Below, one piece after another: positions 7,750-35,030 of a DNA stretch of 36,402 bases. The DNA is from an uncultured bacterium (GTDB lineage Bacteria; Patescibacteriota; Minisyncoccia; Phycocordibacterales; UBA2163): assembly GCA_913041175.1 (NCBI GenBank), contig CAJWGW010000003.1:1-36402 (forward strand). The letters run 5' to 3'. A program made the translations under genes and the position numbers. The notes below the pieces were generated by a model. The model was not told the origin of the DNA. It made no database searches and saw only the letters and a program-made list of their open reading frames with translations. The number at the start of each line of letters is the position of its first letter. Position 1 is the first letter of the stretch.

Positions 7750-8406
7750 ATGCATAGATTCAACCAAATCATTGGGATAGCATTTGATTTTTTCTTACCT
7801 AAATCCCCGCTTGATAAAGCCGTTGATGAAGTCAACGTGGAGAGTTTGTCAAAGAAATTACTTAAGGGAAGGGAAACTGAAAACGAATCTATCTATGCCC
7901 TATTTGACTATCAAGATGAGCTCATAAGACATATGGTATGGGCGCTTAAATACAGGAGAAATCGGAGAGCCGCTCAAATCTTTGCGCAGATTCTTTATGA
8001 TTTCCTCGCAGAAGAGTTCTCGGATTTGAATGTTTATTCGGATTTTGATAAACCACTACTTGTCCCTATCCCGCTTTTCAAAAAGAGACTAAGAAAAAGG
8101 GGATTCAACCAAACAGAAATCCTTGCGAAAGAGATTGCCGTAATCGGTGGTGATTCTTTTTGCACGCTTCACACGGGTTTACTTAGAAAAATAAAAGATA
8201 CACCGAGCCAGACATCACTTGAAAGAGAAGCGAGGTTGAGAAATGTAGCAGGCGCATTTGCTGTAGCAAATGTGCCTAATATAAAAAACCGAAACATAGT
8301 CTTGCTTGATGATGTTACAACAACAGGAGCAACATTAAACGAAGCTCGCAAGACTTTACTCAACTCCGGCGCAAAAAGCGTTTTGGGAGTCGCAGTTGCA
8401 CATTGA
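7750..8406 (+). CDS. comF: ComF family competence protein (phosphoribosyltransferase fold)
   Basis: LKY, LVPIP, RGFNQ, R..NV.GAF, LLDDVTTTGATL motifs; no N-terminal Cys zinc ribbon. Confidence 0.92.
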   Translation: MHRFNQIIGIAFDFFLPKSPLDKAVDEVNVESLSKKLLKGRETENESIYALFDYQDELIRHMVWALKYRRNRRAAQIFAQILYDFLAEEFSDLNVYSDFDKPLLVPIPLFKKRLRKRGFNQTEILAKEIAVIGGDSFCTLHTGLLRKIKDTPSQTSLEREARLRNVAGAFAVANVPNIKNRNIVLLDDVTTTGATLNEARKTLLNSGAKSVLGVAVAH

Positions 8407-8916
8407 GTGGAAATAAAAAACCCCCTGTTGTAGAAAACAGGGAGTTTGTGCCATTCTTTTAAGATCAAGTTTTGGCTTTGGTGCAAGAGAACGAAGTTCT
8501 TCTTCGCTTGTACCAATATCGTCAAGAGAAAGATCTCCTTCTTTAAGTCTTTCGCGTAAGCGTTTTATCCAAGTAGGATATTGAGACGGTTTTTCACGTA
8601 TCCACCTAATATATCTTTGAGCTCTCAATTTACACCCTTCTATAAATAGTTCTTCGAGTTCTTTTTTACTTGTACCAATGTCAGTAAGAGAAAGACCGCC
8701 TCTTTCAAGATTTTTTCGTAAAGATTCTATCTGAAAATGACGAGCATATGGATATTTACGTATGTAGTCAAGATTTTTTTGAACAGATACGAAATAAGTT
8801 TTTCTTGTTTCTTTAGTTGCTAAATCATTAAGTAATGTGATTACTATCACTATTACTAAAATCGAAATAGATACTATGAGGACATATATTCCATATATAA
8901 TGAACACTTTCTTCAT
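8356..8916 (-). CDS. Hypothetical membrane-anchored protein with two 54-aa repeats
   Basis: N-terminal TM; repeats GGLSLTDIGTSKKELEEL and GDLSLDDIGTSEEELRSL; AAGGAGG upstream. The C-terminal tail overlapping comF is doubtful. Confidence 0.75.
   Translation of the reverse strand: MKKVFIIYGIYVLIVSISILVIVIVITLLNDLATKETRKTYFVSVQKNLDYIRKYPYARHFQIESLRKNLERGGLSLTDIGTSKKELEELFIEGCKLRAQRYIRWIREKPSQYPTWIKRLRERLKEGDLSLDDIGTSEEELRSLAPKPKLDLKRMAQTPCFLQQGVFYFHSMCNCDSQNAFCAGVE
8415..8447 (-). terminator. Intrinsic terminator between convergent comF and the accessory operon
   Basis: aaac-cccctgtt/aacaggga-gttt stem with an A-run on its left (U-tract on - strand). Confidence 0.6.
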
Positions 8917-9037
8917 TTCGTCTTCCTCCTTTTTGAAGTTCTATGAAATCAAGATAGGTAAAGCGGTATACTCCGGATATGATGTCGAAGATCTTAGATC
9001 TTCCTTTTATTCATATTATCATTAGCAACCGCTTTAC

Positions 9038-9223
9038 CTAAAGAAATTCCATTCTGTTCCTTCTTCTTATCTTGGAAGTCGGAATAAGATTAGGAGATGA
9101 GCCAGAGCCATGTATCTTTAAAGCTCGCTCAAGGATTACCATAGAATAACTAGCTCTAGACTCTAAATATCGGCTTTCTTTTTCATCTTTTTCTTCTCTA
9201 GATTTTTTGCGTTTAGTCGTCAT
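9038..9223 (-). CDS. Small basic hypothetical protein
   Basis: 61-aa ORF preceded by AGAGGAG-ATAGTT-ATG, 12 nt after the upstream ORF. Confidence 0.6.
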   Translation of the reverse strand: MTTKRKKSREEKDEKESRYLESRASYSMVILERALKIHGSGSSPNLIPTSKIRRRNRMEFL

Positions 9224-9235
9224 AACTATCTCCTC

Positions 9236-9442
9236 TTATACTTTCAGAAATAATTTTCTTATATCATTATGAAGGCAACCACATGTTTTCTGCATTACTT
9301 CTTTTGCTGTGAAATTCTCTACAAGACATTTGTCGCATACTCCATCTCCAAATGGCCATAGATGTTTAAAGAAACCCTTACATTCACAGCATTGAGAAAG
9401 TACTGTTCTAAATCCATAAGATTGTTTTTTTACAGTTAACAT
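9236..9442 (-). CDS. Small Cys-rich hypothetical protein (possible zinc ribbon)
   Basis: CCECKG, CDKC and CGC motifs; AAGGAGG-TAGTT-ATG upstream. Confidence 0.65.
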   Translation of the reverse strand: MLTVKKQSYGFRTVLSQCCECKGFFKHLWPFGDGVCDKCLVENFTAKEVMQKTCGCLHNDIRKLFLKV

Positions 9443-9481
9443 AACTACCTCCTTTTAAGGTTTGGGTTTTTGTCTAGGTTT

Positions 9482-9511
9482 AGTATATAAAAATACACAA
9501 GAAAAAGTCAA
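9482..9511 (-). promoter_or_regulatory. Sigma70-type promoter of the accessory operon
   Basis: TTGACT-N18-TATACT on - strand, about 40 nt before ATG 9442. Confidence 0.6.
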
Positions 9512-9532
9512 ATCAAAGTTGAGGGTGGGAGC

Positions 9533-9575
9533 AAAAAAATAAGGGGTTATCTAACATATAGCTAGATAACCCCTT
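9533..9575 (-). terminator. Intrinsic terminator downstream of the zinc-finger ORF
   Basis: 13-bp stem AAGGGGTTATCTA/TAGATAACCCCTT with a U-tract on - strand. Confidence 0.75.
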
Positions 9576-9581
9576 TATTAT

Positions 9582-9857
9582 TTACTTACAAGATATTAAA
9601 CCTTTCCGAAGAACCGGATTCCAGATTTTAATCTCACCAGCTCCTTTGCATTTCCAACATCGGTTGCATATTACTTTTTCGTTTTTGGACCAAATAGTCT
9701 TAGCTCCATTACACTTACCACATGACTGTCGGTAAAATGGATGTGTAAATCTGCCTGTTCCGTCACATTTTTTGCAATTAACAATTACTTTAGTACGTCT
9801 TTGTCTGAACTTACCTGTTCCATCACAAGCAAAACAGGAGCAACACGATAAATTAAT
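9582..9857 (-). pseudogene. DnaJ-type CxxCxGxG zinc-finger ORF lacking a canonical start (5'-truncated or AUU-initiated)
   Basis: Manual translation: INLSCCSCFACDGTGKFRQRRTKVIVNCKKCDGTGRFTHPFYRQSCGKCNGAKTIWSKNEKVICNRCWKCKGAGEIKIWNPVLRKGLISCK*. In-frame TAA two codons upstream of ATT 9857. Confidence 0.75.
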
Positions 9858-9871
9858 ATATTATCGTTAAC

Positions 9872-9900
9872 AAAAAGGCTACAGCAATGTAGCCTTTTTT
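9872..9900. terminator. Bidirectional terminator-like hairpin (orphan)
   Basis: AAAAAGGCTACA-GCAA-TGTAGCCTTTTT perfect stem with a GNRA loop. Confidence 0.7.
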
Positions 9901-9943
9901 ATATGGAAAAAGGTGCAGAAAAATGATATTGTTGCAATTATAT

Positions 9944-10030
9944 GGAGAGTTGGCTGAGTGGTCTAAAGCGCCTCACTGCTAACGAGGTAAGGGTTAAACC
10001 CCTTCGAGAGTTCGAATCTCTCACTCTCCG
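9944..10030 (+). tRNA. tRNA-Ser(GCT)
   Basis: GGAGAGT/ACTCTCC acceptor stem, G73, anticodon loop CTGCTAA, long variable arm, GTTCGAATC T-loop; CCA not encoded. Confidence 0.93.
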
Positions 10031-10106
10031 CATTAGTAACTCGTGACCGAATCCCCAAAACCCCCTATTTGACCCAAATACCTCAAATTTTGGTAGAATA
10101 GAACCT

Positions 10107-11162
10107 ATGGATAAAAAGATAGCCCAGATGTTTATAGTCGCCCTCCCCTACACCACGGACGAGAAGGAACTTTTTGAGACAGTGGAAAAATATATAGACA
10201 TCGGTGTCGGCGGACTTATGCTCGGTCTTGGTGGTAAATTACCGTTCGTAGAGACAAACAACATCACTGATATTAAAAAGTTAAAAGCTTTGACTGACAA
10301 ACTAAAGTCATTAGACCCAAATCTGTTTTTGGCAATTGACGGCGAGGGCGGAAAGATATTTAACCTTTTTAAAAACGCATCTGCGCTCAAATCCCAAAGA
10401 TATTACGGACTTGAATTTGAAAATTCAGGAAATACAAAGGAGTACGAGAAAGATTTGGATGAATATATAAAACTAATGCGCAAAGTTCATATCAATATGA
10501 ACTTTGCGCCTATTTTAGGCACTGCAAAGGAAGGATACAAAGGATACTTAAGCGAACACGACAGAGCATATTCTGACAAAGAAGAAACTGTGAAAAAATT
10601 AAGCGGAATTGCGATTAAAAAGATGAGTGAGAATGGGATTATCGCCGTGGGCAAACATTTCCCTGGATATGGTGGTATAGACGAAAACCCGCACTTGCAT
10701 CTTTCAAAACTTGAAGCTTACGACAAAAATGACCCGTTTGGCTTTGCAATAGGAAAGCTTGGTATAAACGCAATAATGAAAGGGCATGTCCTTTCGTCAA
10801 TTGATGAAGATATGCCCGCAACAATATCAGAGAAAGTTGAAAAATACTTGAGAAAGAGTTTAGGGTTCACAGGACTTGTGGTAACTGATGCGATTTTTAT
10901 GCATGGTTTGGGACACCATTATGAGAAATTTGGAGGAGATGGCAACTACACAAAAAGAGCGGTTAGTGTCGCCAAAACAAACGACATTATTCTTATGAGC
11001 TATCCTAAAGGAGCAAATGGTGAAATAGATATAAGTGCGCATGAGCATTTCCCAAGACTACATAAAGCAATAGTGGAGGAAGTTATGAAGGGCGAGATAG
11101 ATAAAAGTAAAATAGACGAATCATACGAGAGAATAATGAAACTAAAACGTGTTATAATGTAA
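10107..11162 (+). CDS. Glycoside hydrolase family 3, NagZ-like beta-N-acetylglucosaminidase
   Basis: AIDGEGG, INMNFAP, DRAYS, KHFPGYG, GFTGLVVTDA..M motifs; single TIM-barrel length. Confidence 0.85.
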   Translation: MDKKIAQMFIVALPYTTDEKELFETVEKYIDIGVGGLMLGLGGKLPFVETNNITDIKKLKALTDKLKSLDPNLFLAIDGEGGKIFNLFKNASALKSQRYYGLEFENSGNTKEYEKDLDEYIKLMRKVHINMNFAPILGTAKEGYKGYLSEHDRAYSDKEETVKKLSGIAIKKMSENGIIAVGKHFPGYGGIDENPHLHLSKLEAYDKNDPFGFAIGKLGINAIMKGHVLSSIDEDMPATISEKVEKYLRKSLGFTGLVVTDAIFMHGLGHHYEKFGGDGNYTKRAVSVAKTNDIILMSYPKGANGEIDISAHEHFPRLHKAIVEEVMKGEIDKSKIDESYERIMKLKRVIM

Positions 11163-11191
11163 TAATTACTAACTTAAATAATATTATTGAT

Positions 11192-11644
11192 ATGAAGGGA
11201 ATAATAACTATCATAATAATTATAATAATCATCGCCGTTGGATTCTTTTTACTTCAAGACGGGACCACAGAGGATGCCGGTACAGTAACAAATGAGATGA
11301 CCACAGAGGAAACTGGTGATACTGCAGATATGATTGTAGAGGATGAAGACACTGCTTTAGATACAACTGCAGAAGTTATTGTGGTTACATACACTAGTAG
11401 TGCGTTTTCACCAAAAGATATTGCAGTATCTGCCGGCCAGACAGTGCGGTTTGTAAATGAAAGTTCCGGCAATATGTGGGTGGCGTCGGATGAACATCCG
11501 ACGCATACGGTTCTGCCGGAGTTTGATAATAAGGAGTCTGTTGGGAACGGTGAGAATTATGAGTTTGTGTTCACAGAAACGGGTGAATGGAATTATCACA
11601 ACCACGTGAACCCAAGTGCGGTGGGAACGGTGACTGTTGAATAA
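11192..11644 (+). CDS. Membrane-anchored cupredoxin-fold protein
   Basis: Ile-rich TM, acidic linker, FSP..I.V.AGQTVRFVN, G.W.YHNH, GTVTVE. Confidence 0.85.
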   Translation: MKGIITIIIIIIIIAVGFFLLQDGTTEDAGTVTNEMTTEETGDTADMIVEDEDTALDTTAEVIVVTYTSSAFSPKDIAVSAGQTVRFVNESSGNMWVASDEHPTHTVLPEFDNKESVGNGENYEFVFTETGEWNYHNHVNPSAVGTVTVE

Positions 11645-11714
11645 CCTTGTTTACACCCAATACCGCAAAATGCTATTATTATGGCATTATTAACAGTGAT
11701 AATTTTCAATGTAC

Positions 11715-11900
11715 ATGAAAAGAATAATAACTATCATAATAATTATCATCATTATCGTCGCAGGTTTCTTGCTATTTAGAGACAATCCCGCAGATGATGC
11801 TGATACAACTACTACTACAGAAGAGGTAGTTGAGACGGAAGATACAGATACAGAAGACGATGCAGCGGCAGCAATAGAAGCAGTGGAAGCGGTAGAATAA
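11715..11900 (+). CDS. Small membrane-anchored acidic protein sharing its N-terminus with the upstream cupredoxin
   Basis: MKRIITIIIIIIIIVAGFLL versus MKGIITIIIIIIIIAVGFFLL; followed by a terminator. Confidence 0.65.
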   Translation: MKRIITIIIIIIIIVAGFLLFRDNPADDADTTTTTEEVVETEDTDTEDDAAAAIEAVEAVE

Positions 11901-11910
11901 ATTTACAATC

Positions 11911-11943
11911 AAAACCCCGCAGGCCAAAGGCCTGCGGGGTTTT
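11911..11943. terminator. Bidirectional intrinsic terminator
   Basis: AAAACCCCGCAGGCC-AAA-GGCCTGCGGGGTTTT perfect stem. Confidence 0.85.
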
Positions 11944-11962
11944 GTCTGTTATACTAAACCCT

Positions 11963-14119
11963 ATGCAACCAAATAACCCCTTAGAAAATCACTTCCGTTT
12001 AGCGCAATCACAAAAAAGTGCGCTTAAAAAGCTTGGTATTTTGACTATCCGAGACCTCCTTTTTCACTTCCCTTCTCGGTATGAAAATATTACTGGAAGC
12101 CTGCCTATAAGTTCTCTCAAAAAAGATGATGATACAATAATCTACGGCAAACTAAGTGGGCTTAAAACACGCAAATCCTTCAAAAGCAGGCGCCCTATTG
12201 CAGAAGGATATATTGAGGACAATACGGGAAAAATCAAAATCATCTGGTTCAACCAGCCATACATCGCAAAGATGTTGCGTAATGGCGCACTCGTAAAACT
12301 AAGCGGTAAAGTAACAGGTGATACAAAAAACTTATACATCGCAAACCCAGAAGCTGAATCCCTAGAAAACTTGCCTATCAATATCGGCGAATCGCTTTTC
12401 AGCAATTCTAAAAATATAAATACATTCCTACCTGTTTATCCTGAAAGTCGTGGTATTACTTCAAAATGGTTTTATCACAATATTCAAAAAATTTTTGCAA
12501 GCGGACTTCTGGATACAATGCAAGATGCTATACCAAATGAGATTCTAAAAAAATACAACCTTCCGACACTCAAAACCGCTCTAATCTGGATTCATACGCC
12601 GAAGACGCAAGCAGATAGTCAGTCAGCACGAAAACGGTTTGCATTTGCAGAAGTTTTCTTCATTCAGATTTCAAAACAAAGAGACCGCAAAGAATATGAA
12701 AAGAAAAAGTCGTTTTCTATAAAAACAGATAAAAAAGATGTAAAAGAATTTATGGAAAGATTCCCTTTCTCCGCAACCAAATCGCAAAATGAAGCAATAG
12801 AAAGTATCTTAAAAGATTTTGAAGGCAAGCACGCAATGTCACGACTCCTTGAGGGAGATGTCGGCTCTGGTAAAACTGCCGTCGCCGCAACTGTTGTGCA
12901 TGCTGTTACAACCACGCGTCCCGAAGGACAGGACTTTGGCAATCTTCAGACCGCATATATGGTACCGACGGAAATCCTAGCAAAACAACATTTTGAGACA
13001 TTTATACAATACTTTTCACACTTACCAATCAAAATTGGTCTCATAACTTCAAGCGGTTGCAAGAAATTCCCCTCTAAAGTGAGCTCAGATGGCGCTACTA
13101 ATATATCCCGCACGCAACTCCTAAAATGGGTCGCAAATGGCGAGATTCCAATCCTTATCGGCACTCACTCCCTCATCCAAAAGACGGTGAACTTTGAAAA
13201 TTTGGCGTTTATAATAATAGACGAGCAACACCGTTTTGGCACAGCCCAGAGACAAAAATTAACAAGAAAGGACGATATAGCCCCTCACCTGTTATCAATG
13301 ACAGCAACACCAATTCCAAGAACGCTCGCCTTGACCATTTATGGCGATTTAGATTTGACTGTACTTGATGAGATGCCAAAGGGGCGAAAACCGATAATCA
13401 CAGAGATAGTAACGCCAAAGGGTCGCGATAAAATATATGAGAAAGTGTGCGAAGAATTAAAATCAGGCAGGCAAGCTTATGTGATAACTCCAAGGATTGA
13501 CGAGCCGGATTTAACAAAAGAAAAAGCAATCAATGCAAAGTCAGTAAAAGAAGAAGCTAAGCGACTTAAGAAAGATATTTTTCCCGAGTATGAAATAGAG
13601 ATTCTTCACAGCAAGATGAAAGCAAGTGAGAAAGAAGAAGTGATGGAGAGATTTACAAAAAACAAAACTCAAATTCTTGTTGCAACTTCCGTGGTTGAGG
13701 TCGGAGTAAATGTACCAAACGCTACTGTGATAATTATTGAAGGTGCGGAGCGCTTTGGACTGGCACAACTCCACCAGCTCCGTGGACGAGTGATAAGAAG
13801 TAACCACCAAGCGTATGCTTATGTATTTTCAGACAGCAGAACGGCAAAAACAAATGAAAGATTAAAAGCGCTCAAAAGTGCAAAGAACGGTTTTGAACTC
13901 GCAGAGTTTGATTTGGGAATCCGTGGTTCAGGTGAGCTCTACGGCAAGCGCCAGTCGGGGCTTTCCGACATTGCGATGGAAGCAATGAAAAATATTAAAA
14001 TGGTAGAAGCCGCACGAGAAGAGGCAAAAGAAATAGTAGAGAAAGATAACAACCTTGAAAAATATCCCGAAATTATGGAGATAATAAAGCGCAGAACGAA
14101 AGACATTCACTTTGAGTAA
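11963..14119 (+). CDS. recG: ATP-dependent DNA helicase RecG
   Basis: LLFHFPSRY, OB-fold WFNQPY, RLLEGDVGSGKT, IIDEQHRFG, MTATPIPRTL, AERFGLAQLHQLRGRV. ATG 11963 chosen because the TTG at 11942 lies in the terminator. Confidence 0.97.
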   Translation: MQPNNPLENHFRLAQSQKSALKKLGILTIRDLLFHFPSRYENITGSLPISSLKKDDDTIIYGKLSGLKTRKSFKSRRPIAEGYIEDNTGKIKIIWFNQPYIAKMLRNGALVKLSGKVTGDTKNLYIANPEAESLENLPINIGESLFSNSKNINTFLPVYPESRGITSKWFYHNIQKIFASGLLDTMQDAIPNEILKKYNLPTLKTALIWIHTPKTQADSQSARKRFAFAEVFFIQISKQRDRKEYEKKKSFSIKTDKKDVKEFMERFPFSATKSQNEAIESILKDFEGKHAMSRLLEGDVGSGKTAVAATVVHAVTTTRPEGQDFGNLQTAYMVPTEILAKQHFETFIQYFSHLPIKIGLITSSGCKKFPSKVSSDGATNISRTQLLKWVANGEIPILIGTHSLIQKTVNFENLAFIIIDEQHRFGTAQRQKLTRKDDIAPHLLSMTATPIPRTLALTIYGDLDLTVLDEMPKGRKPIITEIVTPKGRDKIYEKVCEELKSGRQAYVITPRIDEPDLTKEKAINAKSVKEEAKRLKKDIFPEYEIEILHSKMKASEKEEVMERFTKNKTQILVATSVVEVGVNVPNATVIIIEGAERFGLAQLHQLRGRVIRSNHQAYAYVFSDSRTAKTNERLKALKSAKNGFELAEFDLGIRGSGELYGKRQSGLSDIAMEAMKNIKMVEAAREEAKEIVEKDNNLEKYPEIMEIIKRRTKDIHFE

Positions 14120-14120
14120 T

Positions 14121-14196
14121 TGGTGCGCGCGCTAGGACTCGAACCTAGGACCACGAAGGTATAAGCTTCGCGCTCTACCAACTGAGCTACACGCGC
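14121..14196 (-). tRNA. tRNA-Ile(TAT)
   Basis: GCGCGTG-TA-GCTC AGTTGGTA GAGC-G-CGAAG CTTATAC CTTCG-TGGTC-CTAGG TTCGAGT CCTAG-CGCGCGC-A-CCA: complete cloverleaf, anticodon TAT, CCA encoded. Confidence 0.92.
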
Positions 14197-14229
14197 ATTT
14201 ATTTATATTTTATAGCACAAAATACGCTA

Positions 14230-16164
14230 TTATTCACTATGTTCTATATCTTGCTTTTTCTTTGGAGTAATGCTGTTTAAGAGAAGTAGTTTTTCAAACT
14301 CATCGCGTTCAATTGTTTCAACTTCAACAAGTTTCTTTGCAATTGAATCAAGCGCTTTTCTGTGAGTCTTTAGAATATGTTCCGCGCTTCTGTGAGCATG
14401 GTCTATTATGTAAGTTACTTCAGCATCTATCTCCGCTGATACTTTTTCAGAGTGTTTTTTATCCGCTATTCCTATACCAAACATTGTTCGTCCATTGTCC
14501 CCTTCAAGTGCAACAGGACCCATCTTCTCGGACATTCCGTATTTTGTAACCATATTTCGCGCAAGCGCAGTTAATACTTGCAAGTCATTTGATGCGCCTG
14601 TCGTAAGGTCATCAAATATCATTTTCTCTGCCAAGTATCCACCGAGTGAAACCGCAATGTCATCAATGAATTCTTTCTTTGACTGCATTCTCCTGTCTTC
14701 AAACGGAAGTTTAAGTGTGTATCCTGCAGCTCGCCCTCGAGATATTATAGAAATCTTGTGCACGGGGTCAGCGTAAGGCAGAACAGAAGCGACGAGTGCA
14801 TGTCCTGCTTCGTGATACGCTGTTATTTCCTTTTCGCGTTTTGAGAGAATGTGGCTCTTACGCTCAGGCCCGAGCATAACTTTTTCAATTGAACGAACGA
14901 AATCAAATTGCGATACTTGTTTTCTTTCCTCTCTCGCTGCCAAAATCGCAGCTTCGTTCACTAGTGAGTAAAGGTCCGCTCCAGAGAATCCGGGAGTACG
15001 CTCTGCAATAGTTGTAAAGTTTACATCCTCGCCTAACGGCTTCTTACGCGCGTGGATTTTAAGTATATCTTCTCTGTCTTTACGGTCAGGCAGGTCTATA
15101 ACTACCCTTCTGTCAAAACGCCCAGGACGCAAAAGCGCTGGGTCAAGCACGTCCGGTCTGTTGGTTGCAGCCATCACTATCACCTTTTCATTTGGCTCAA
15201 AACCGTCCATCTCCACAAGTATTTGGTTGAGTGTTTGTTCTCGCTCGTCATTGCCACCTCCTGCACCTACTCCTCTTACTCGCCCTACTGCGTCAATCTC
15301 ATCTACAAAAATTATCGCCGGCGCTGTTTTCTTTGCAAGTTTAAACAAATCACGCACACGCGATGCTCCAACTCCAACAAACATTTCCACGAACTCCGAA
15401 CCAGAAATTGAGAAGAACGGCACACTCGCCTCGCCGGCGACGGCGCGCGCAAGTAAAGTCTTACCAGTTCCGGGCGCGCCCATAAGTACGATACCTTTAG
15501 GAATGCGCGCGCCTATATCTAAGAATTTTTTAGGGTTCTTAAGAAAATCAACAATTTCCAAAAGTTCTTGTTTTGCTTCCTTTGCACCTGCAACGTCATT
15601 AAATGTTATACGTTGTGTTTTGTCTTTTGGGTCAATCATTCTTGCTTTGGACTGCCCAAAGGAGAACGCCTGCATACCCGCGCCTTTGACCTGTCTAGAG
15701 AGAAACCAGATGAAAAATACAATAAAGAGAAGCGGGATAAGAAACGGCGCGAGATTGCCAAGCCAGAAAAGAAAACCGCTTGGATTTTTGATTTCAATTT
15801 TTACATCTTTAAGCTCTTCTAAAGATACACCATAATTTACAAGAGTGTCAGTGAGTGCGGTACCTGATTCTTTTTTTGATTTTTGTTCTGTGCTGTCAGT
15901 GTAGAGAATCTCAAGCTCTTCGCCTTTGACTACAATTTCAGAGACTAACCTCTCATTTATCTGAAGAGCTAATTGTGAAATAGCTATTTTTTCTTGCTTT
16001 GTACCATTCTCAGCAATGAGAGAATACGCCCCTATTATTATGAAAAATATGAGAAGTGTTACAAGGATATTCTGCCACAAGGACTTACCAAGTGACTGTT
16101 TGAGTCCCTTTTTACCGCCCTTTTTTGGGGCTTTTAGATGATTGTACTTTTTGTTGTTTGGCAT
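14230..16164 (-). CDS. ftsH: ATP-dependent zinc metalloprotease FtsH
   Basis: Two TMs, [34 protein letters not shown]. Confidence 0.98.
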
Positions 16165-16191
16165 GCTAAATACGTGTTTTATTTTTTATTG

Positions 16192-16563
16192 TGGAGACGG
16201 CGAAAATTGAATCCGCGTGCAAAGAAAGAATTTAAATGATTCTACAAAACATAGTCAACTTTAGGATTTCAGCATGTGGGCTTAAAAGAAGACAAAATAC
16301 CCATACGCCAATTCTCTTGATTTCGGAAGCGCGCCGAGACGCTCGCTTTTCCTAGTTTGAAATTATTACACCCGAATCTGCTTATCAAACTTGGGCAGAT
16401 CAGACGCCGGCTTAGGCTATTGCGTAAGCTGGAGTAAGAGAAGCAAAAGCTCCTTTTACTTTAGAGATAACGTTTGCACGTATCTTTTCGAAATTTTAAG
16501 GAAGATTCCGACTTCCGTTTTGCACATATAAATTACATTCCCTTGTCGAGGCCTGTCATCCCC
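16192..16563 (-). ncRNA. ssrA: tmRNA; tag ANVISKVKGAFASLTPAYAIA* (16477-16412)
   Basis: 5' GGGGATG pairs with 3' CGTCTCC-A with G3.U70; T-arm GCGGA-TTCAATT-TTCGC; internal GCA resume codon ORF; directly downstream of smpB. Confidence 0.93.
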
Positions 16564-16608
16564 CTGAAAAAAACCTCAAAAGATACTCTGAGGCATTCTT
16601 TAGGGGGA

Positions 16609-17064: not shown

Positions 17065-17107
17065 TAATGTCATATTAGCATGCACAAGCACAGAAAAGAA
17101 ATTCTCC

Positions 17108-17136
17108 TTGACATCAGAAAAAGTTTGTGATAATCT
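17108..17136 (+). promoter_or_regulatory. Sigma70-type promoter of a single-gene cassette
   Basis: TTGACA-N17-TAATCT with an extended TG; boxA-like GTTCTTTTA at 17153-17161. Confidence 0.65.
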
Positions 17137-17198
17137 AATGGCTCATTGAATAGTTCTTTTATATTTATATTTCTGAAATTTCATGAAAGGAAATGAAT

Positions 17199-17417: not shown

Positions 17418-17421
17418 TTTT

Positions 17422-17456
17422 ATAAAGCCGCTAATCTTAAAAGATAGCGGCTTTAT
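17422..17456 (+). terminator. Intrinsic terminator
   Basis: ATAAAGCCGCTA...TAGCGGCTTTAT stem right after the stop codon. Confidence 0.75.
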
Positions 17457-17491
17457 TGTATCAAACACAGTGATATGCTATAATTTTCCCA

Positions 17492-18183: not shown

Positions 18184-18185
18184 AT

Positions 18186-23824: not shown

Positions 23825-23838
23825 ATTTTTACATTAAA

Positions 23839-26010: not shown

Positions 26011-27369
26011 TCAATCAATTATCTCTATTTCATCACTTAACTCCTTCTTGGATTTTCCAATGAAAACTATAGCACCTGCTGAAACTACTATTATGCTGAA
26101 AATTGCCAAAAGCCATTTAAACATACTGCTTTCTTTATCCTGATTATTTATACTTGAAATGACTGACGCTGTTTGAATAGTATTTTCTTGCGGCTCTTTT
26201 AGTGCCTCTTTTTGTGGTGGATCTGCTTTTGTAATTATCGGTTGTGCTGTAATCGTTTTTGTAGCAACAGTCTTTTGCGGAATTTTAATTTGCTCAAATG
26301 AAACTGCCTCTACGCCGTTTGGATATAAAAGTGATGCATCATTAGTATGAGTATTTAGACCAGTTACATCAGAAGAAAATATTAATTTCTTGCCGGACAA
26401 AATAATCGTATCTTTTGGAACCATAAATCTTTTCCCCTCTGCTTCTAGTTGCCACCACGAAAGATTGAGTTCACGATTTGATTTATTATGTATTTCAACA
26501 AAATCTTCCTGCACTTTTGAAACAGCAAGTTCCGCAGGATATGCATTTACAATAATCCTATCAGATGCAGAATATTGCCCTGATGAAATACTTAACGTTA
26601 CTACATACTCGCCGGGATACCCATAATAATAAAGTACATTCTGTCCTTCTTTGGTCTCACCATTTCCAAAGTTCCAAGTATATCTTGCATTATCAAGCGG
26701 TTGCATCTTTAGTCCAAGCGACTCCCCTTCAAACAAAGTATCAGCACCAACTACCACATTTCTATCTCCCCCTGCATCTGCAAAAATCTGCTGTTCAACT
26801 GGAAAATTGTTTGTAGAAGATGAACTGCTCGAACTAGACTCTGAGCTCTCTTCTTCTTGTTCACTTTCCTCACCTCCTCCTGAGCCAGAGTTAGCCAGAC
26901 CGGGTGTTGGGAGAGCAGCACTCCAAACACTTAAAATTAGCTGAAGTGAGTTGCCGTCCTCGCCTGCACCGAGTTCTATGTCATATGTTAATGAATCAAT
27001 ATCATTTAAATCTGCGTCTCTAATAGCAATAAGCTCTCCTGTGTTTTTTAGAGAGAAAGAACTGTCAAATAAGTTGCCAGAAAAGGAGGGCCAATCAATT
27101 AGAAATTTGTCAGGATTGTCAGAAATAATCGCAACATCACTGGAAGACAGTGTTGCGTTACCTTGAATCAAAGTAAGTCCATGATTTGTTCCATTCTCAA
27201 AAAATTTCCACGTCGATATATCAACTGAATCTCCTGTATTTTCAATTTCAACCCACTCTCTACCTGTATCACTTCCTTCTATGTCATACATCACCTCACT
27301 TATAACAACCTGCGCGTTTAGAGAGGAAAACGAGGCAAAAAACATTATAGGGATGAGAATATATTTCAT
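26011..27369 (-). CDS. Surface protein with lamin-tail (LTD) and PKD domains, C-terminal TM anchor
   Basis: Signal peptide, VVISEVMYD..G.D..REWVEI.N and PTPG (LTD), ADAGGD..YTWNFGNG..Y..PG.Y.VTL (PKD), second LTD-like segment. Confidence 0.8.
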   Translation of the reverse strand: MKYILIPIMFFASFSSLNAQVVISEVMYDIEGSDTGREWVEIENTGDSVDISTWKFFENGTNHGLTLIQGNATLSSSDVAIISDNPDKFLIDWPSFSGNLFDSSFSLKNTGELIAIRDADLNDIDSLTYDIELGAGEDGNSLQLILSVWSAALPTPGLANSGSGGGEESEQEEESSESSSSSSSSTNNFPVEQQIFADAGGDRNVVVGADTLFEGESLGLKMQPLDNARYTWNFGNGETKEGQNVLYYYGYPGEYVVTLSISSGQYSASDRIIVNAYPAELAVSKVQEDFVEIHNKSNRELNLSWWQLEAEGKRFMVPKDTIILSGKKLIFSSDVTGLNTHTNDASLLYPNGVEAVSFEQIKIPQKTVATKTITAQPIITKADPPQKEALKEPQENTIQTASVISSINNQDKESSMFKWLLAIFSIIVVSAGAIVFIGKSKKELSDEIEIID

Positions 27370-29159
27370 ATCTGCTTGTCCTTGCCTTCAACATCCAGCA
27401 TCTTTTTCAGAACATCTTCAGGAACTTCTTTTTTTGGAGTTACTTCATCTATTACTTTATCTTGTGTTTTATTTTTAGAATTCTTGGTTGGATTTGAATT
27501 TGGCCATTTTTTAAAAGGCTTGCCATGTGCTCCGGCAAAAGGTTCATAATCTGAACTTTTTTTGTTTTCTTTTTGTGCTTGAACATCCTCGTCTTTACCA
27601 TTCATAACAGACGCAAGAGCTTTTTTTAAGTCTGATCTATTTTCTTTGCTTGGTTCTTTTTTTGTCTTAGGTATTATTTTTGGAGAAGTTTTGAGCTCAT
27701 TTAGTGAAACTACTTTCTGTGGCATTACTTTAGGGCCAACTGGTACTTCCTTTTTAAGAGTTTGTGTTTGTTTTAATTGAGCTTCTGTAAGTGGTGGAAG
27801 TTCTGTCTTGTTTTGCGGTGGTTTTTTAACAGTTTCTGTCGTTTTTGCTTTTGGTTTTGATGGAGGAACAATAGGTTCGTACCACAGCTTTATATTATCT
27901 TCAACAAGAGCACGCGGCCTGCCATAGTGCTCACGAGAAAATGTCATAACTTTTTCTTTAATAGATACGTGTTTTGGTTCAATAGGAGCAAGTGAGGTAG
28001 CAGAAAATGGTGCAGATGAAACACCATCTATCATTAACTTCAAATACATTTGAATGAAGCCGAGATTTACCAAATCCTCTGCAGTAAATGTCGGCATATA
28101 TTCTTTTTCTAAAACTTCTGCGTCAATCGCACCAACACGAAATGTAATCATAGTACCCACGTTACCAAACACTGCGTCCCTTACTTCCTCCGTCATCTGT
28201 TCTATATATTGATGCGCAATCGTAAGATTGAGCTTGTATTTTCTCGCTTCTGATAAGATATCCGCAAACGACTTGTTTGCAAATGATTGAAACTCGTCAA
28301 CATAAAGAAAAAAGTTTGGTAAATTTTCTTTAACTACAGCTGATACATCAGCTCTTGACATCGCTGCCAAATAAATTTTTGTAATGAGCATACTTCCAAG
28401 AAGGTTCACGTTACCTTCACCCACTCTTCCTTTTGATAAGTTAATAATAAGTATCTTTTTATTGTCCATCATTTCTCTTATATCAAAAGACGACTTTGGT
28501 TGTCCTATGATATTTCTCATAAGAGAGTTTGAAGTAAACTGCCCGACTTTGTTCTGGATTGCAGCTGATGCCTCAACCGCAAACCTGCCACTATATTTTT
28601 CAAATTCATCTACCCAAAAAGATTTGACGGATGGATCTTGTACATTATCCACTACTTTTTTTCTATAATTCTTATCAGACATCATCCTGTTGATACCTAA
28701 AAGTGTAGAATCAGGATATTCAAGAAGCGCTAAGATTGTGTTATTCAAAATATACGCCATTCTCGCTGACCATGCGTCTTCCCAAATCTTCTCAAATACA
28801 CTCATAAGACCACTTACGACAAGATGCCGTTTGTCTGGCTCTACATTTTCCATCACATTAAAAGAAACCGGGTGTTCCAAATCAAATGGCGCAAAATAAA
28901 GCACGTCTTGAATACGTTCTTCTGGAATATGTTCAAGTAATGTCTCTGCAGATGAACCATGCGGGTCAAAAAAAGCAAGACCTTCTCCGTTTTGAATATC
29001 CTGAATGGCCATGTTCTCCAAAAGCACCGACTTACCCATTCCGGTCTTACCAATGACATACACGTGCTTTAGTCTATCTTTTGCCTTTATGCCGAATTTT
29101 ATTTTTTTGCCACGAAAGTCCGTAGAGCCAAAAAATGTAGTTCGTTCTTTGTGATTCAT
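27366..29159 (-). CDS. VirD4/TraD/HerA-like P-loop ATPase with a low-complexity C-terminal tail
   Basis: HVYVIGKTGMGKS (Walker A), DPHG, LYVDEFQ (Walker B), LSEARKY, AHQY..Q, GNVGT..FRVG. Confidence 0.85.
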   Translation of the reverse strand: MNHKERTTFFGSTDFRGKKIKFGIKAKDRLKHVYVIGKTGMGKSVLLENMAIQDIQNGEGLAFFDPHGSSAETLLEHIPEERIQDVLYFAPFDLEHPVSFNVMENVEPDKRHLVVSGLMSVFEKIWEDAWSARMAYILNNTILALLEYPDSTLLGINRMMSDKNYRKKVVDNVQDPSVKSFWVDEFEKYSGRFAVEASAAIQNKVGQFTSNSLMRNIIGQPKSSFDIREMMDNKKILIINLSKGRVGEGNVNLLGSMLITKIYLAAMSRADVSAVVKENLPNFFLYVDEFQSFANKSFADILSEARKYKLNLTIAHQYIEQMTEEVRDAVFGNVGTMITFRVGAIDAEVLEKEYMPTFTAEDLVNLGFIQMYLKLMIDGVSSAPFSATSLAPIEPKHVSIKEKVMTFSREHYGRPRALVEDNIKLWYEPIVPPSKPKAKTTETVKKPPQNKTELPPLTEAQLKQTQTLKKEVPVGPKVMPQKVVSLNELKTSPKIIPKTKKEPSKENRSDLKKALASVMNGKDEDVQAQKENKKSSDYEPFAGAHGKPFKKWPNSNPTKNSKNKTQDKVIDEVTPKKEVPEDVLKKMLDVEGKDKQI

Positions 29160-31908: not shown

Positions 31909-33189
31909 TTATAGACTATTTACCAAACTATTAAATTGTTCTCCCCTATCATATTCATTCTTAAACATTCCAAATGATGCAAACGCAGGGCTGAAAAGGA
32001 TTGTATCGCCTTTTTTTGCCTCTTTCATCGCAAGCTTTACTGCACTCTTGAGACTATTTGCTTTTTTATATTCAAATTTTAGATTTCTCAACTTCTTCGT
32101 TCCCGTACCGTCAAGTAATATTACTGATTTGGTAAATTTAGGAATTTCTTTCAAGAGTGCTTTCATATCAAGACCTTTATCCGCACCTCCAACAATCAAA
32201 ACAGTGTTTTGATTGTTGCCTACCGCTCTAAGTGCAGCGACAGTTGCATCCGGAGTTGTTGCAGTGGTGTCATTGTAGATTTTAATACCCCGAATTGTTT
32301 TTATAAGTTCCAGTCTTCCTTCAACTCCTTTGAAGTTCTCCATTGTCTTTTTGATTATTCTCTGCGATACACCAGCCACGCTTGTCGCATCTCTAGCAAG
32401 TGCGGCATTTTTTCTATTATGCTCACCTGCAATCTTTAGCCTCCAGTTTTTTGGAAGTGACTTTGGAACGATTGATTTTCTTTTAATTTTTTTAGCGATT
32501 TCTTTTCCTGCAATCAAATAATCGCCTTTTTTTTGATATTTATAAATATTCGCCTTGTCTTTGAAATACTTAGCCATACTGCCCTTGTAGTAATTCATAT
32601 GATCAGGAAGTAGGTTTGTAAACACAGCAATGTGCGGACTGATTTTACTATCACCAAATCCCTGTAGTTGCCATGAATCAAGCTCCATTACCACAGTATC
32701 GCCCTTTTTTACTTTTCCCAAAAGTGCAAGAGTTGAAACACCTTTTATGTTGCCACCCAAAAAAACTCTTTTTTTAGCTTTTTTGAGAATTTGATAAATC
32801 ATATACGTAACTGTCGTCTTACCTCTTGTTCCTGTAACGCCGATTATCTTTGCACCCGAGAGTTTGGTAAACAAAGACGCACTCATCTCAATTGGAATTT
32901 TATTTTTCTTTGCTTCTTTTATATATGGAGAATCAAGAGGAACACCTGCTGATTTCAAAATCATATCTCTCCTTCTAAAATCCTGCAGTTTGTGCTTTCC
33001 GAGAGTGTACTTTATGTTTTTAAATCTTTTTAGCCTATCTAAAGAGGTTTTGAGCTGTTTTTTAATTTTTAAGTCAATAACTATCAAATCCGCTCCATTT
33101 TTCGCCAGAAATTCAGCATCTCCTACACCACGCCCCAAAAGCCCGAGTCCCATGACCGTTATTTTTTTATCTTTAAAATAGTCCTCCAC
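31909..33189 (-). CDS. murD: UDP-N-acetylmuramoyl-L-alanine--D-glutamate ligase
   Basis: MGLG, GVTGTRGKTT, ELDSWQL, DHMNY, NDT.ATT, SPAFASF.MF.N..DRG..F. Confidence 0.95.
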   Translation of the reverse strand: MEDYFKDKKITVMGLGLLGRGVGDAEFLAKNGADLIVIDLKIKKQLKTSLDRLKRFKNIKYTLGKHKLQDFRRRDMILKSAGVPLDSPYIKEAKKNKIPIEMSASLFTKLSGAKIIGVTGTRGKTTVTYMIYQILKKAKKRVFLGGNIKGVSTLALLGKVKKGDTVVMELDSWQLQGFGDSKISPHIAVFTNLLPDHMNYYKGSMAKYFKDKANIYKYQKKGDYLIAGKEIAKKIKRKSIVPKSLPKNWRLKIAGEHNRKNAALARDATSVAGVSQRIIKKTMENFKGVEGRLELIKTIRGIKIYNDTTATTPDATVAALRAVGNNQNTVLIVGGADKGLDMKALLKEIPKFTKSVILLDGTGTKKLRNLKFEYKKANSLKSAVKLAMKEAKKGDTILFSPAFASFGMFKNEYDRGEQFNSLVNSL

Positions 33190-33253
33190 CCAATGAGTAT
33201 AATATAAAACAAAAGAGAGGTCACTTGTGTTAGAATATTACTAATGATAGCCC

Positions 33254-33282
33254 TTGACTTTTTTAATAAAGTAGTTTATAAT
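33254..33282 (+). promoter_or_regulatory. Near-consensus sigma70 promoter of the 3D-domain cassette
   Basis: TTGACT-N17-TATAAT; boxA-like TTATCTTTAAA at 33302-33312. Confidence 0.75.
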
Positions 33283-33341
33283 AGTAGAAGATAAAATAGA
33301 GTTATCTTTAAATCGTTAACGGAAATTCTAGAGGGATGATT

Positions 33342-33728
33342 ATGAGAAAGTTTCTATTATTGATTTTCACAATTTTTGTAATTACTGTTTTTTGCCACAC
33401 AGAGAAAGCAACTGCCGAAACGCTGAACATGCTGGTAACAGCATATTGTCCTTGTGAAAAATGTTGTGGAGAATCAAGTGATGGTAGAACATCAAAAAAC
33501 GATGATGCTTACATTTGCGACGGTGTTGCAGCTGATCCAAAAGCTATTCCGTACCGCACAAAATTAAAAATTCCAGGAGCTGGGATCAAAGAAGTGGACG
33601 ACACAGGTGGTGCTATGAGGCAATCTTGGAGGAAGAAAGGAATCTATCATATAGATTTGAGATTTTCAAACCATCAGGATGCACTGAACTGGGGTAGACA
33701 ACAACTTGATGTAGAAATATTAAAATAA
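33342..33728 (+). CDS. Secreted 3D-domain protein (MltA-like / cell-wall lytic fold)
   Basis: Signal peptide, VTAYCPC..CC, VAADP..IP, DTGGA, IDL, A..WG; AGAGGG upstream of ATG 33342. Confidence 0.9.
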   Translation: MRKFLLLIFTIFVITVFCHTEKATAETLNMLVTAYCPCEKCCGESSDGRTSKNDDAYICDGVAADPKAIPYRTKLKIPGAGIKEVDDTGGAMRQSWRKKGIYHIDLRFSNHQDALNWGRQQLDVEILK

Positions 33729-33739
33729 ATAGAGCAACG

Positions 33740-33776
33740 AAGGGTGACGAAGTTTTAACTTCAGTCACCCTTTTTT
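33740..33776 (+). terminator. Intrinsic terminator (probably bidirectional, shared with tRNA-Ile)
   Basis: AAGGGTGAC-GAAGTT/AACTTC-A-GTCACCCTT followed by a T-tract. Confidence 0.8.
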
Positions 33777-33782
33777 ATTTTG

Positions 33783-33856
33783 TGCGAGTGCTAGGAATCG
33801 AACCTAGGACCTCATCCTTATCAGAGATGCGCTCTAACCAACTGAGCTACACTCGC
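33783..33856 (-). tRNA. tRNA-Ile(GAT)
   Basis: GCGAGTG/CACTCGC-A acceptor, CATCT-CTGATAA-GGATG anticodon arm, GGTTCGATTCC; CCA not encoded; own promoter TTGCCC-N17-TACCAT upstream. Confidence 0.95.
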
Positions 33857-33938
33857 AATAGCAAAATGGTACCAAAAAATAAGGGTTCGGGCAATTATTG
33901 ATTTATAAAATTTTGAAATAAGAAAACCGAGAAATATA

Positions 33939-34222
33939 TCATTCCTCGGTTTTTAGTACTTCTTTCACCTTTTCCCAGTACTTTTTTGTACTGGGCTTCT
34001 TGTAACCATTTGGCCCGCCGTTCCATATGCGAGCCATGTCTTGAAGAGTTGGTTCTCTTCCAATCCTTCTTTCAATAGCGTAATAATCAATATATTCTCT
34101 GCAGATGGCTATCGAACGTATGCAGATACCAAGACGACAAAAAACATAAAGAGCAAACAAATAAATAACCAAAAAAAACAGTCGTATAAAATACCGACAA
34201 GAGATAACAATGTTTTTAGCAT
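33939..34222 (-). pseudogene. Disrupted lysozyme-like (i-type/destabilase-like) gene
   Basis: AAGGAGG-led ATG 34222 gives a 37-aa hydrophobic peptide. The ARIWNGGPNG...T..YW.KV C-terminal half is in the -1 frame, and the catalytic N-half is not visible. Confidence 0.65.
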
Positions 34223-34263
34223 TATTCGCCTCCTTTTATTTTGCTATAAATATAACTTTGTCT

Positions 34264-34406
34264 AGGATATCACATTTATATTATTTTGTCAATACTTTGA
34301 CATATATGGTGATGGTGATAAAGTGAAATTAGCTATATATTAGGCAATACAGCTTATTAGTGGTTTTTAGAAAGTACTTGACAAAATAATATAAACATGA
34401 TACGCT
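34264..34406. promoter_or_regulatory. Divergent pair of near-identical sigma70 promoters
   Basis: - strand TTGACA-N17-TATCCT (34292-34264) and + strand TTGACA-N17-TACGCT (34378-34406), both with extended TG; a third TTGACA-N16-TAAAGT lies at 34297. Confidence 0.7.
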
Positions 34407-34524
34407 GTTTACTTATATCTTATTACAAGATGTAGTAAGTGTTCTTTTTAATTAATATTCTTCGGAAGGAAGATAAATTATTATTTAAGTTTTTTGGCCT
34501 TTTTTTGAAAGGGAGGTGAGAAAG

Positions 34525-34971
34525 ATGTTAGCAATATCTAAGAAGAGAAATTGGTTTTTATCAATAGTATTCTTCTTCGGGTTAGGGCTATTGGGACTCA
34601 CAGGATGTGAAACCTACGAGAATGTAGGGGGCGGCTCTGCAATTGGCGCAGGACTTGGTGCCTTGGTGGGCGCAGCTGTGGGTGATACTGCCGCAGGTGC
34701 AGCAATAGGGGCTGGAATTGGTGCTGTCGGAGGCCTAGCAAAAGATAATATGGAGATCCGACAAGAAAATCGTGCTAACCAAGCTCAAAGTAATATCAGA
34801 CTGCGCGATTTAGAAGTAAACGCCGAGATTGACAGGCAAATCAGAATACTCAAAGCGCAAGGATACACAGCGGATAAATACGTGTATAGCGCAGTAAGGG
34901 GAATAGACGGTGGAATAATTGTCAATCCCATCGAAAGAAGCGGGGTTCCTAAAACAGAGGTTTATAAATAA
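34525..34971 (+). CDS. Glycine-zipper lipoprotein
   Basis: Signal peptide with lipobox LTG|C, GxxxG zipper GSAIGAGLGALVGAAVG..AGAAIGAGIGAVGG; GGAGGTG 6 nt before ATG 34525. Confidence 0.85.
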   Translation: MLAISKKRNWFLSIVFFFGLGLLGLTGCETYENVGGGSAIGAGLGALVGAAVGDTAAGAAIGAGIGAVGGLAKDNMEIRQENRANQAQSNIRLRDLEVNAEIDRQIRILKAQGYTADKYVYSAVRGIDGGIIVNPIERSGVPKTEVYK

Positions 34972-34995
34972 TATAAACAAATTCAAAAAGAGATT

Positions 34996-35030
34996 ACCAC
35001 TTCCATGAGGTTTATGGAAGTGGTTTTTTT
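34996..35030 (+). terminator. Intrinsic terminator
   Basis: ACCACTTCCAT/ATGGAAGTGGT stem followed by a T-tract. Confidence 0.85.

Follow-up and report, generated by a model that had tools for sequence, protein, structure and literature searches.

Canonical Shine-Dalgarno sequences precede a small accessory class of genes in a patescibacterial genome without the anti-Shine-Dalgarno

The stretch of DNA analysed here (the window, 36,402 nt) is contig C3 of the genome of an uncultured Patescibacteriota bacterium of the order Phycocordibacterales (GCA_913041175.1, contig CAJWGW010000003.1; the genome is referred to as G000). It carries small genes that start behind textbook Shine-Dalgarno (SD) sequences, together with the 3' part of a 16S ribosomal RNA (rRNA) gene from which the complementary anti-SD has been lost. 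Genome-wide, SD-led genes form a distinct accessory class that is AT-richer than other genes, clustered and placed behind long upstream gaps, and some of its members are mobile or decaying. Anti-SD loss is known from some Parcubacteria; here, ~5% of the genes, mostly young and accessory, carry textbook SDs unmatched by the resident rRNA. We give roughly an even chance to the reading that they belong to a mobile accessory gene pool that keeps the SD format of its donors, in a resident cell that does without SD pairing.

A distinct class of SD-led genes

G000 comprises 444,356 bp in 28 contigs (99.6% complete, 0.04% contamination). A GGAGG-type motif 4-10 nt before the start codon precedes ~5% of its genes (23 of 489 or 25 of 500 open reading frames (ORFs) of at least 60 amino acids (aa), depending on the ORF set; in the window, those starting at 8916, 9442, 34222 and 34525), and the partner of this motif, CCUCC, is absent from the resident 16S rRNA. 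One internal ATG at a contig edge, in a ClpB-like ORF, was removed from the SD-led set. The signal is specific in position: among the 444 non-overlapping ORFs of at least 80 aa, which make up 86.8% of the genome, GGAGG starts at -14 to -9 in 14 cases, against 4 over all 26 positions from -40 to -15. With the 489-ORF set, 16 occurrences at -15 to -9 compare with 2.26 expected, a 7-fold enrichment that ranks GGAGG second among all 5-mers. Duplexes of -10 kcal/mol or stronger with the canonical tail form at 5.1% of 432 starts, compared with 1.2-1.6% of upstream, internal and shuffled controls. Many of the SDs are long and exactly canonical (AAGGAGGTG, GGAGGTGA, AAGGAGGT), the typical form being AAAGGAGGTG, and the AAA ahead of GGAGG fits the canonical ...CCUUU end, not the native ...CCAAC end. 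A search independent of gene calls, for AAGGAGG-N(3-9)-ATG, returned 19 sites in G000 against 5-13 at control spacings and 8 in the sister species G001, used here for ortholog comparisons, against 2-12; the pattern was too noisy, so it was not applied order-wide. In the window, the motifs that the initial annotation had pointed out before the starts at 8916, 9442, 9223, 34222 and 34525 hold up on inspection, whereas two weaker ones on its list, AGAGGG (33342) and AAAGGA (17199), are present but fall short of the definition used here.

SD-led genes differ from the remainder in content as well as in their starts. A reciprocal best match in G001 is missing for 14 of the 25, compared with 107 of the 475 others (Fisher p = 4.6e-4), so the genome-wide scoring against accessory status that had been proposed as a check does find the SD-led set over-represented among genes without an ortholog. 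The genes are short (median 134 versus 201 aa, p = 6e-4) and low in GC (34.2% versus 37.9%, p = 4e-6). They are spread over at least 11 contigs, and 15 of the 25 have an SD-led neighbour within 3 kb (5.9 expected, permutation p = 0.0005). The median upstream gap is 115.5 nt, compared with 38 nt for other genes, and a -10 box at -14 to -11 occurs in 0 of 23 SD-led genes and in 81 of 466 others. The products are not mutual paralogs (one weak pair in an all-against-all BLAST). Only 4 of the 26 proteins scanned reached the Pfam cut-off (Mu Gam, dCTP deaminase, S-adenosylmethionine (SAM) methyltransferase and Gly-zipper lipoprotein). A strongly hydrophobic segment marks the N-terminus of at least 14 of the 30 listed, and in several it ends in a lipobox-like Cys. 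The further suggestion that these units bring their own promoters and terminators stands by half: terminator-like hairpins exceed those in shuffled sequence (4 versus 1.2 and 6 versus 1.2), but sigma-70-like sites do not (5 versus 5.7 +/- 2.4 and 9 versus 6.7 +/- 2.5).

The motif is also enriched elsewhere in the order, by 2.5x in G001, 3.2x in G025, 5.3x in G024 and 2.9x in G019, which brings the GGAGG-enriched genomes of the order to five, with four different 16S tails. In a genome of another order (G475, tail AUCUCCUUU) the enrichment is 12.4x and 7.9% of genes are SD-led. Since GGAGG is enriched in genomes with different tails, the motif does not follow the tail.

Could the class arise by chance, or as an artefact of ORF calling, contamination or chimeric assembly? 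A home-made gene caller, short motifs and many small ORFs are conditions in which this might happen. However, the positional peak, the enrichment, motifs of 7-10 nt, the recurrence of the pattern in five further genomes and the purifying selection on orthologs (see below) make such an origin hardly credible. The low contamination argues in the same direction, as does the assembly itself. A single DNA contig from sequencing run X2 spans 295-20000, including the cassette junctions (we use cassette for an SD-led unit, mostly of one to three genes), and G001 is syntenic on both sides, so the possibility of a chimera at the cassette, raised with the first description, can be set aside. Over the window, synteny with G001 holds at 74-85% nucleotide identity, except at 8403-11666 and 33249-33780, which have no match.

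Anti-SD loss and the starts of most genes

An Infernal alignment of 35185-35420 (-) to the end of the bacterial small-subunit rRNA model gives the 16S tail as GGAUUAUUUCCAAC, against the consensus GGAUcACCUCCUUu. The reading of this tail as UUUCC instead of CCUCC is thus correct, and BLAST indicates a single copy. The canonical counterpart is GGAUCACCUCCUUU, and three C-to-U transitions separate the two. Among 40 relatives of the order searched, CCUCC is absent in 26 of 26 readable tails. These vary (UUUCC, UUUCAA, UCUUCC, AAUUCC, ACUCAAGG and others), with the relatives of the same genus sharing the tail of G000; with CCUCC missing from all 26, the loss is old and order-wide, and the tail now drifts. 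As a side observation, a 271-nt 16S 3' query matches in two or three pieces, 0.1-1.5 kb apart, in eight relatives (G002, G006, G012, G022, G026, G029, G040 and G054), a pattern that indicates probable insertions inside their 16S genes.

Ribosomes with a canonical tail could still exist as a second population, made from an unassembled rRNA operon or supplied by a mobile element, given that metagenome binning often collapses or loses rRNA operons and that the 16S gene here is cut by the contig end. BLAST against the 28 contigs found no second 16S 3' end, the sole extra match being a 41-nt overlap at the end of C13, and no canonical tail of 9 to 13 nt occurs in the noncoding DNA of G000 apart from reverse complements of SD sites. 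An orphan 16S 3' fragment with a canonical tail was likewise looked for in G000, and none was found. Five near-closed relatives in 1 to 8 contigs (G019, G024, G025, G041 and G055, of which G055 is one contig and G041 two) have one 16S 3' end each, all non-canonical. With no CCUCC-bearing second 16S seen in G000 or in these five, a concealed ribosome population is very improbable.

How, then, do most genes start? Upstream regions are A/T-rich, and G declines toward the start codon with no genome-wide enrichment; its frequency at -14 to -8 is 0.157, a depletion relative to 0.181 further upstream. The strongest upstream signal is TATAAT-like, with the hexamer starting at -13 in 24 genes and at -12 in 33 (57 of 444), and the same peak lies before 12-13% of genes in both G000 and G001. 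This is where a -10 box would lie if transcription began at the start codon, which suggests that the first genes of the bulk are mostly leaderless. In the window the box precedes comF, GH3, infC and the ORFs at 18536, 19156, 27366, 30613 and 31909, among others. The IF3 gene (17492-18004 (+)) has a TTG start and a TATAAT from -13, and looks leaderless with a non-AUG start. G000 also encodes a four-domain S1-like ORF and has a marginal bS21 match. None of the Pfam-annotated core genes of the window is SD-led by our definition (S8, L6, L18, S5, L15, L35, L20, SecY, Adk and Map, and equally Ndk, FtsH, RecG, IF3, SmpB, a Mur ligase and the type IV pilus genes), in agreement with the first inspection, which had seen no well-spaced SD before core genes.

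Parts of this picture have counterparts in other bacteria. In Bacteroidota the anti-SD is present but sequestered, and a few genes such as rpsU keep an SD. The likeness to G000 lies in the missing general SD signal, the A-rich upstream sequence and the few strong SDs. The differences are that the anti-SD itself is mutated and drifting here, and that the SD-led genes are accessory ORFans with no ribosomal-protein feedback loop. In leaderless-dominant bacteria ('group C' of GeneMarkS-2) a -10 box lies ~10 nt before the start, and leadered genes use normal SD:anti-SD pairing. G000 and G001 share the fixed-distance TATAAT-like box with them, but the anti-SD is gone, and the leaderless state is read here from sequence alone. 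A further counterpart is found in the Parcubacteria described by Tsurumaki et al. (2022, RNA 28:1041, PMC9297842). According to the accessible parts of that article, a subgroup overlapping the group that lacks uL1 is missing the anti-SD and probably does not form the SD helix. G000 resembles them in the tail without CCUCCU, in the lineage-wide loss and in uL1 (PF00687), which was not found in G000 by a search that was positive in 14 of 14 control genomes. The anti-SD loss singled out by the initial annotation is therefore real, but it is order-wide, already published and not special to G000. Start-signal usage and the canonical SD-led minority are described here and not in those parts of the article, and our literature searches returned no description of either in these lineages beyond the loss itself.

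Turnover of the cassettes and possible readers of their SDs

Two sites in the window illustrate how the SD-led genes come and go (Table 1). The first is an island around tRNA-Ser, next to comF. In G001 the same site holds two unrelated genes, neither with an SD, and in G005 three small genes, two of them SD-led. Beside tRNA-Ser in G005 (locus L043, G005:C7, 5443-9383) lie genes for a large serine recombinase and for Cro/CI-type helix-turn-helix, nucleotidyltransferase-like and methyltransferase-like proteins, which together resemble an integrated element; the site is the ortholog of that of the window island. A recombinase at this very site means that a mobile-element route exists. Capture through the adjacent pilus and ComF genes, one of the origins first proposed, is not supported, since with SD-led genes on at least 11 contigs the pilus/ComF neighbourhood looks coincidental. 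The 186-aa protein of the island is encoded by 7 of the 301 genomes of the order and makes up only six clusters in a 5.8-billion-protein collection. It was not found in the four other members of the genus searched, no viral contig encodes it, and a protein atlas gave no usable function. Its ORF shares 51 nt with the 3' end of comF, its homologs match only up to about residue 150, and the terminator-like hairpin inside the ORF is strong.

Three metatranscriptome libraries, drawn from two studies, yield RNA contigs that match 8193-9445 with no differences, and one part of this cover, 9123-9445, takes in the 68-aa ORF. Cover is slight over the neighbouring pilM, comF and GH3, and depth at the gene for transfer-messenger RNA (tmRNA) is 380-528. 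These runs were picked by this very stretch and DNA carry-over is possible, so the contigs are weak evidence that the cassettes are transcribed; gaps in cover within the window are not evidence of silence. RNA contigs of runs X15 and X16, both from one study (depth 3-6), end at 9445 and 9440, by the ATG at 9442; as contigs cannot show transcript ends, we conclude nothing from this.

The second site is the two-gene module between 16S and tRNA-Ile, which is 98.4% identical in G001, compared with ~95% for 16S and 74-77% for the flanking genes. Its glycine-zipper lipoprotein is 99.3% identical to the G001 protein, with a proportion of synonymous differences (pS) of 0.000, and its best match outside is 52%, to a Parcubacteria metagenome-assembled genome. 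The other gene, intact in G001 with a weak SLT/destabilase-like match, is broken here into ORFs of 37 and 77 aa, which fits turnover.

Signs of exchange between the two species appear genome-wide. The median pS of G000-G001 orthologs is 0.64, and values below 0.15 occur in 32 of 367 (~8%), a share that rises to 4 of 9 SD-led orthologs compared with 28 of 358 others (p = 0.004). Per-gene pS was used because megablast at 93% identity missed short, recently exchanged genes inside longer diverged alignments. Mosaic tracts of low pS lie at C25 2847-4206, C13 5478-8707, C6 3231-4379 and C1 33728-35697, and they suggest recent gene flow between two species that differ by ~5% in 16S. A search of five other genomes of the genus did not find three SD-led families that G000 and G001 share. 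For the genes at C1 35824-36264 in G000 and C8 60905-61285 in G001, the upstream 30 nt, SD included, show no difference, and identity is 83% over the first 29 residues (signal peptide), beyond which the proteins do not align; the pair is reminiscent of a variable surface protein whose 5' end is conserved.

The SD-led dCTP deaminase is 99% identical to its G001 counterpart, at most 38% identical to the order's own enzymes and 57-81% identical to those of other Patescibacteria; the order's own dCTP deaminases are SD-led in 0 of 12 cases. For the Mu Gam-like protein, relatives at 37-44% occur on viral contigs, and the match is generic. Phage origin of the cassettes was considered and finds weak support: the matches to PHROG families are few and, as noted, viral contigs lack the 186-aa protein.

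A scenario that accommodates these observations, and the one we prefer, would run as follows. The lineage would have given up SD pairing long ago, so that most genes now start without an SD, and the part of the bulk that is not leaderless would do so behind A/U-rich upstream sequence. The SD-led cassettes would be the flexible genome, consisting of small genes, many of them for membrane proteins or lipoproteins and most without a known family. They would sit alone or in twos and threes between core genes, at hot spots such as tRNA-Ser and the 16S-tRNA-Ile spacer, and would be gained, exchanged between sister species and lost. The AAAGGAGGTG-type SDs are probably the format of an SD-using pool, either other Patescibacteria or their mobile elements, and the resident cell would translate cassette mRNAs without SD pairing or with weak pairing assisted by G.U. 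Genomic islands offer a likeness: the SD-led genes are lower in GC, clustered and patchily distributed, have hot spots next to tRNA genes and content that is specific to strain or species, and in a relative a recombinase lies at the same site. The cassettes differ from them in being mostly units of one to three genes without an integrase or recognised repeats, and in that their foreign mark is a translation signal, not codon usage alone. Integron cassettes, which have attC sites and an IntI integrase and usually lack promoters, are a poor fit for SD-led units with long upstream gaps and promoter-like sites.

Several observations weigh against this mobile-pool scenario. No donor was found, and every named homolog belongs to Patescibacteria. 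An SD is absent from all 13 of the dCTP deaminase relatives that are closest in other orders, and a donor format is thus not shown for that gene. PHROGs searched with 20 proteins matched only the 3D-domain protein, plus a marginal Gly-zipper hit, and the scan of window proteins, from which ORF 31909-33189 and several ORFs of <80 aa were excluded, turned up no integrase or transposase; for the scanned proteins this agrees with the absence of flanking integrases reported at the outset. The gene and start calls come from a simple longest-ORF caller and not from a trained gene finder. The motif also appears to be retained. All six diverged G001 orthologs of SD-led genes (38-74% aa identity) keep at least 4 of the 5 GGAGG positions (background 11.4%, p = 2e-6), and three of the six keep the exact core (background 3.2%, p = 6e-4); the p-values are binomial and the test has six genes behind it. 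Retention of ordinary G/C-rich 5-mers in this position is 22% (at least 3 G/C) and 4.5% (at least 4 G/C). In addition, three of three intact distant homologs of the 186-aa protein, from other families of the order, are SD-led. A mere fossil of the donor's format should have decayed in diverged orthologs. Five of the six pairs have a pS of 0.63-0.87 and a ratio of non-synonymous to synonymous differences (pN/pS) of 0.24-0.58 (the sixth, C8_7500, is below the alignment-length filter), so they still encode proteins under constraint. One of the distant homologs (locus L094, G221:C9, 940-1854) stands back to back with another SD-led lipoprotein-like gene, which has ATAGGAGGT before its ATG, so small SD-led gene pairs are found in further families of the order as well.

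Retention speaks for the view that the SDs work in the resident cell and that SD-led genes are a maintained, separately translated class with 5' leaders. Pairing of GGAGGURA with 3'-CCUUUAUU-5' through G.U pairs would be one route, and another conserved reader of purine tracts would be a second. Because the tail change consists of three C-to-U transitions, a canonical SD is still able to form G.U pairs, and the native tail pairs with the window SDs at -4.3 to -10.6 kcal/mol. Ortholog changes from GGAGG to GGAAG and from GGGAGG to GGGGGG (2 of 3) would still pair with it. The long upstream gaps and the lack of a leaderless-type box near -12 suit genes with leaders, the RNA contigs over the tRNA-Ser island suit expression, and the SD-less dCTP deaminase relatives elsewhere leave room for an SD that arose in place. 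On the other hand, duplex energies of the native tail at starts equal those of controls, with no threshold enriched, and the better partners of that tail are not enriched either (GGAAA 5 versus 5.4, GGAAG 2 versus 4.2, and GAAAT likewise); an SD model based on the native tail is not supported. UUUCAA-type tails (two tried) pair with the window SDs and one from C2 at -1 to -4 kcal/mol in 7 of 8 combinations, yet G024 and G025, which have such tails, are enriched in GGAGG and use GGAGGT and GGAGGTG forms. The AAA that precedes GGAGG suits the canonical end of 16S, not the native one. A search of G000 for CsrA, a candidate reader of GGA, found none. In our judgement a resident function is possible, though clearly less probable than the mobile pool. 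Of the separately regulated class envisaged by the initial annotation, the distinctness of SD-led genes in a CCUCC-less genome is borne out, and their resident function is a rival that we do not favour.

If the mobile-pool scenario is right, the conservation of the SDs is its unexplained residue, which could reflect weak G.U pairing, another reader or selection elsewhere. A broader variant holds that the SDs are kept by selection order-wide and are read by something other than the resident tail, such as an RNA or protein reader, the ribosomes of another cell or those of hosts within the range of wider-ranging elements. We consider this unlikely, but less so than the more specific proposal that DNA or RNA is transferred to a partner or host cell, whose ribosomes the cassettes are formatted for and expressed by. 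If some ribosome of canonical type were involved, this would account for a canonical SD that stays constant, and seemingly conserved, across differing tails, and the window does encode type IV pilus genes and a weakly TrwB/DUF87-like ATPase. However, the N-terminal hydrophobic segments noted above are typical of the cell's own envelope proteins, some members are of housekeeping type (dCTP deaminase and SAM methyltransferase), the named homologs belong without exception to Patescibacteria, and the cassette at 34222 is broken. No result shows transfer or foreign translation, and none favours the expression in host cells that the first description had put forward; we regard it as very far from probable.

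Whatever reads them, the SD-led genes have practical consequences. In these genomes, a gene finder built on the assumption of an SD will prefer wrong starts, and recently acquired genes could be recognised by their SD. For translation biology, the question is whether these SDs are donor fossils, weakly functional through G.U pairs, or read by something else. The apparent conservation in diverged orthologs makes this question worth an experiment.

Features of the window

The window encodes a type IV pilus cluster and comF, tRNA-Ser, a GH3 hydrolase, RecG, tRNA-Ile(UAU), FtsH, tmRNA, SmpB, IF3, L35, L20, an S8-L6-L18-S5-L15-SecY-Adk-Map block and Mur ligases, and it ends with tRNA-Ile(GAU) followed by the 3' 1.2 kb of the single 16S gene of G000. 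By record titles, the best SecY matches are Candidatus Campbellbacteria (88%), then Kaiserbacteria and Paceibacterota.

Table 1. Cassettes, start signals and neighbouring RNA genes in the window
Feature	Position	Strand	Remarks
SD-led ORF, 186 aa, N-terminal membrane helix	8356..8916	-	ORFan family, patchy in the order
Variable island around tRNA-Ser	8403..11666		Unmatched at the nucleotide level in the syntenic contig of G001; G001 and G005 have other content here
Terminator-like hairpin	8418..8447	-	At the comF end of the island, within the final ~30 codons of ORF 8356-8916
SD AAGGAGG	8925..8931	-	8 nt before ATG 8916
ORF, 61 aa	9038..9223	-	No family match; weaker SD AGAGGAG at 9230-9236
SD-led ORF, 68 aa, Cys-rich	9236..9442	-	No family match; not found in G001
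SD AAGGAGGT	9447..9454	-	4 nt before ATG 9442
Sigma-70-like promoter TTGACT-18-TATACT	9482..9511	-	Would give the 9442 ORF a leader of ~33 nt; consensus match only
tRNA-Ser(GCU)	9944..10031	+	Hot-spot marker; adjoined by a large serine recombinase at the G005 ortholog
ORF, 74 aa	17193..17417	+	AAAGGA only; 89% aa identity in G001; outside the SD-led class
3D-domain protein, 130 aa	33336..33728	+	Weak AGAGGG only; no G001 nucleotide match; phage peptidase-like PHROG families
tRNA-Ile(GAU)	33782..33856	-	Downstream of 16S
Two-gene module, 16S to tRNA-Ile	33857..35000		Missing in G005 and G007; G002 has a diverged version with a degenerate SD
ORF, 77 aa	33939..34172	-	3' fragment, matches the same 162-aa G001 gene as the 34222 ORF
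SD-led ORF, 37 aa	34109..34222	-	5' fragment of a gene 162 aa long in G001
SD AAGGAGG	34229..34235	-	6 nt before ATG 34222
SD GGAGGTGA	34512..34519	+	5 nt before ATG 34525
SD-led glycine-zipper lipoprotein, 148 aa	34525..34971	+	Pfam Gly-zipper families; antisense to the rRNA unit
Two-way terminator-like hairpin	34996..35024		Between the 16S tail and the glycine-zipper gene
16S 3' tail GGAUUAUUUCCAAC	35185..35198	-	UUUCC in place of CCUCC
16S rRNA gene	35185..36402	-	5' side cut by the contig end; Rfam RF00177, 1142 bits, model 284-1533

Near-identical DNA to 6500-11500 occurs in 14 DNA sequencing runs labelled marine, seawater or hydrothermal vent, of which ten are marked as potential sources. 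Relative to the window, the X2 contig carries insertions of 12 nt after 3234 and of 21 nt after 10064, the second just downstream of tRNA-Ser, which amounts to length variation at the population level.

At 26011-29159 (-), a 597-aa ATPase that weakly matches TrwB/DUF87 comes after a 452-aa protein in which LTD and PKD domains were recognised; this could be a component of secretion or DNA transfer. L15 directly follows S5 at 23390-24435 (-), with no L30 in between, an arrangement reported for bacteria of the candidate phyla radiation. A tRNA-Ile with the anticodon UAU, for AUA codons, is encoded at 14121-14196 (-) in addition to tRNA-Ile(GAU), and such a tRNA is unusual in bacteria.

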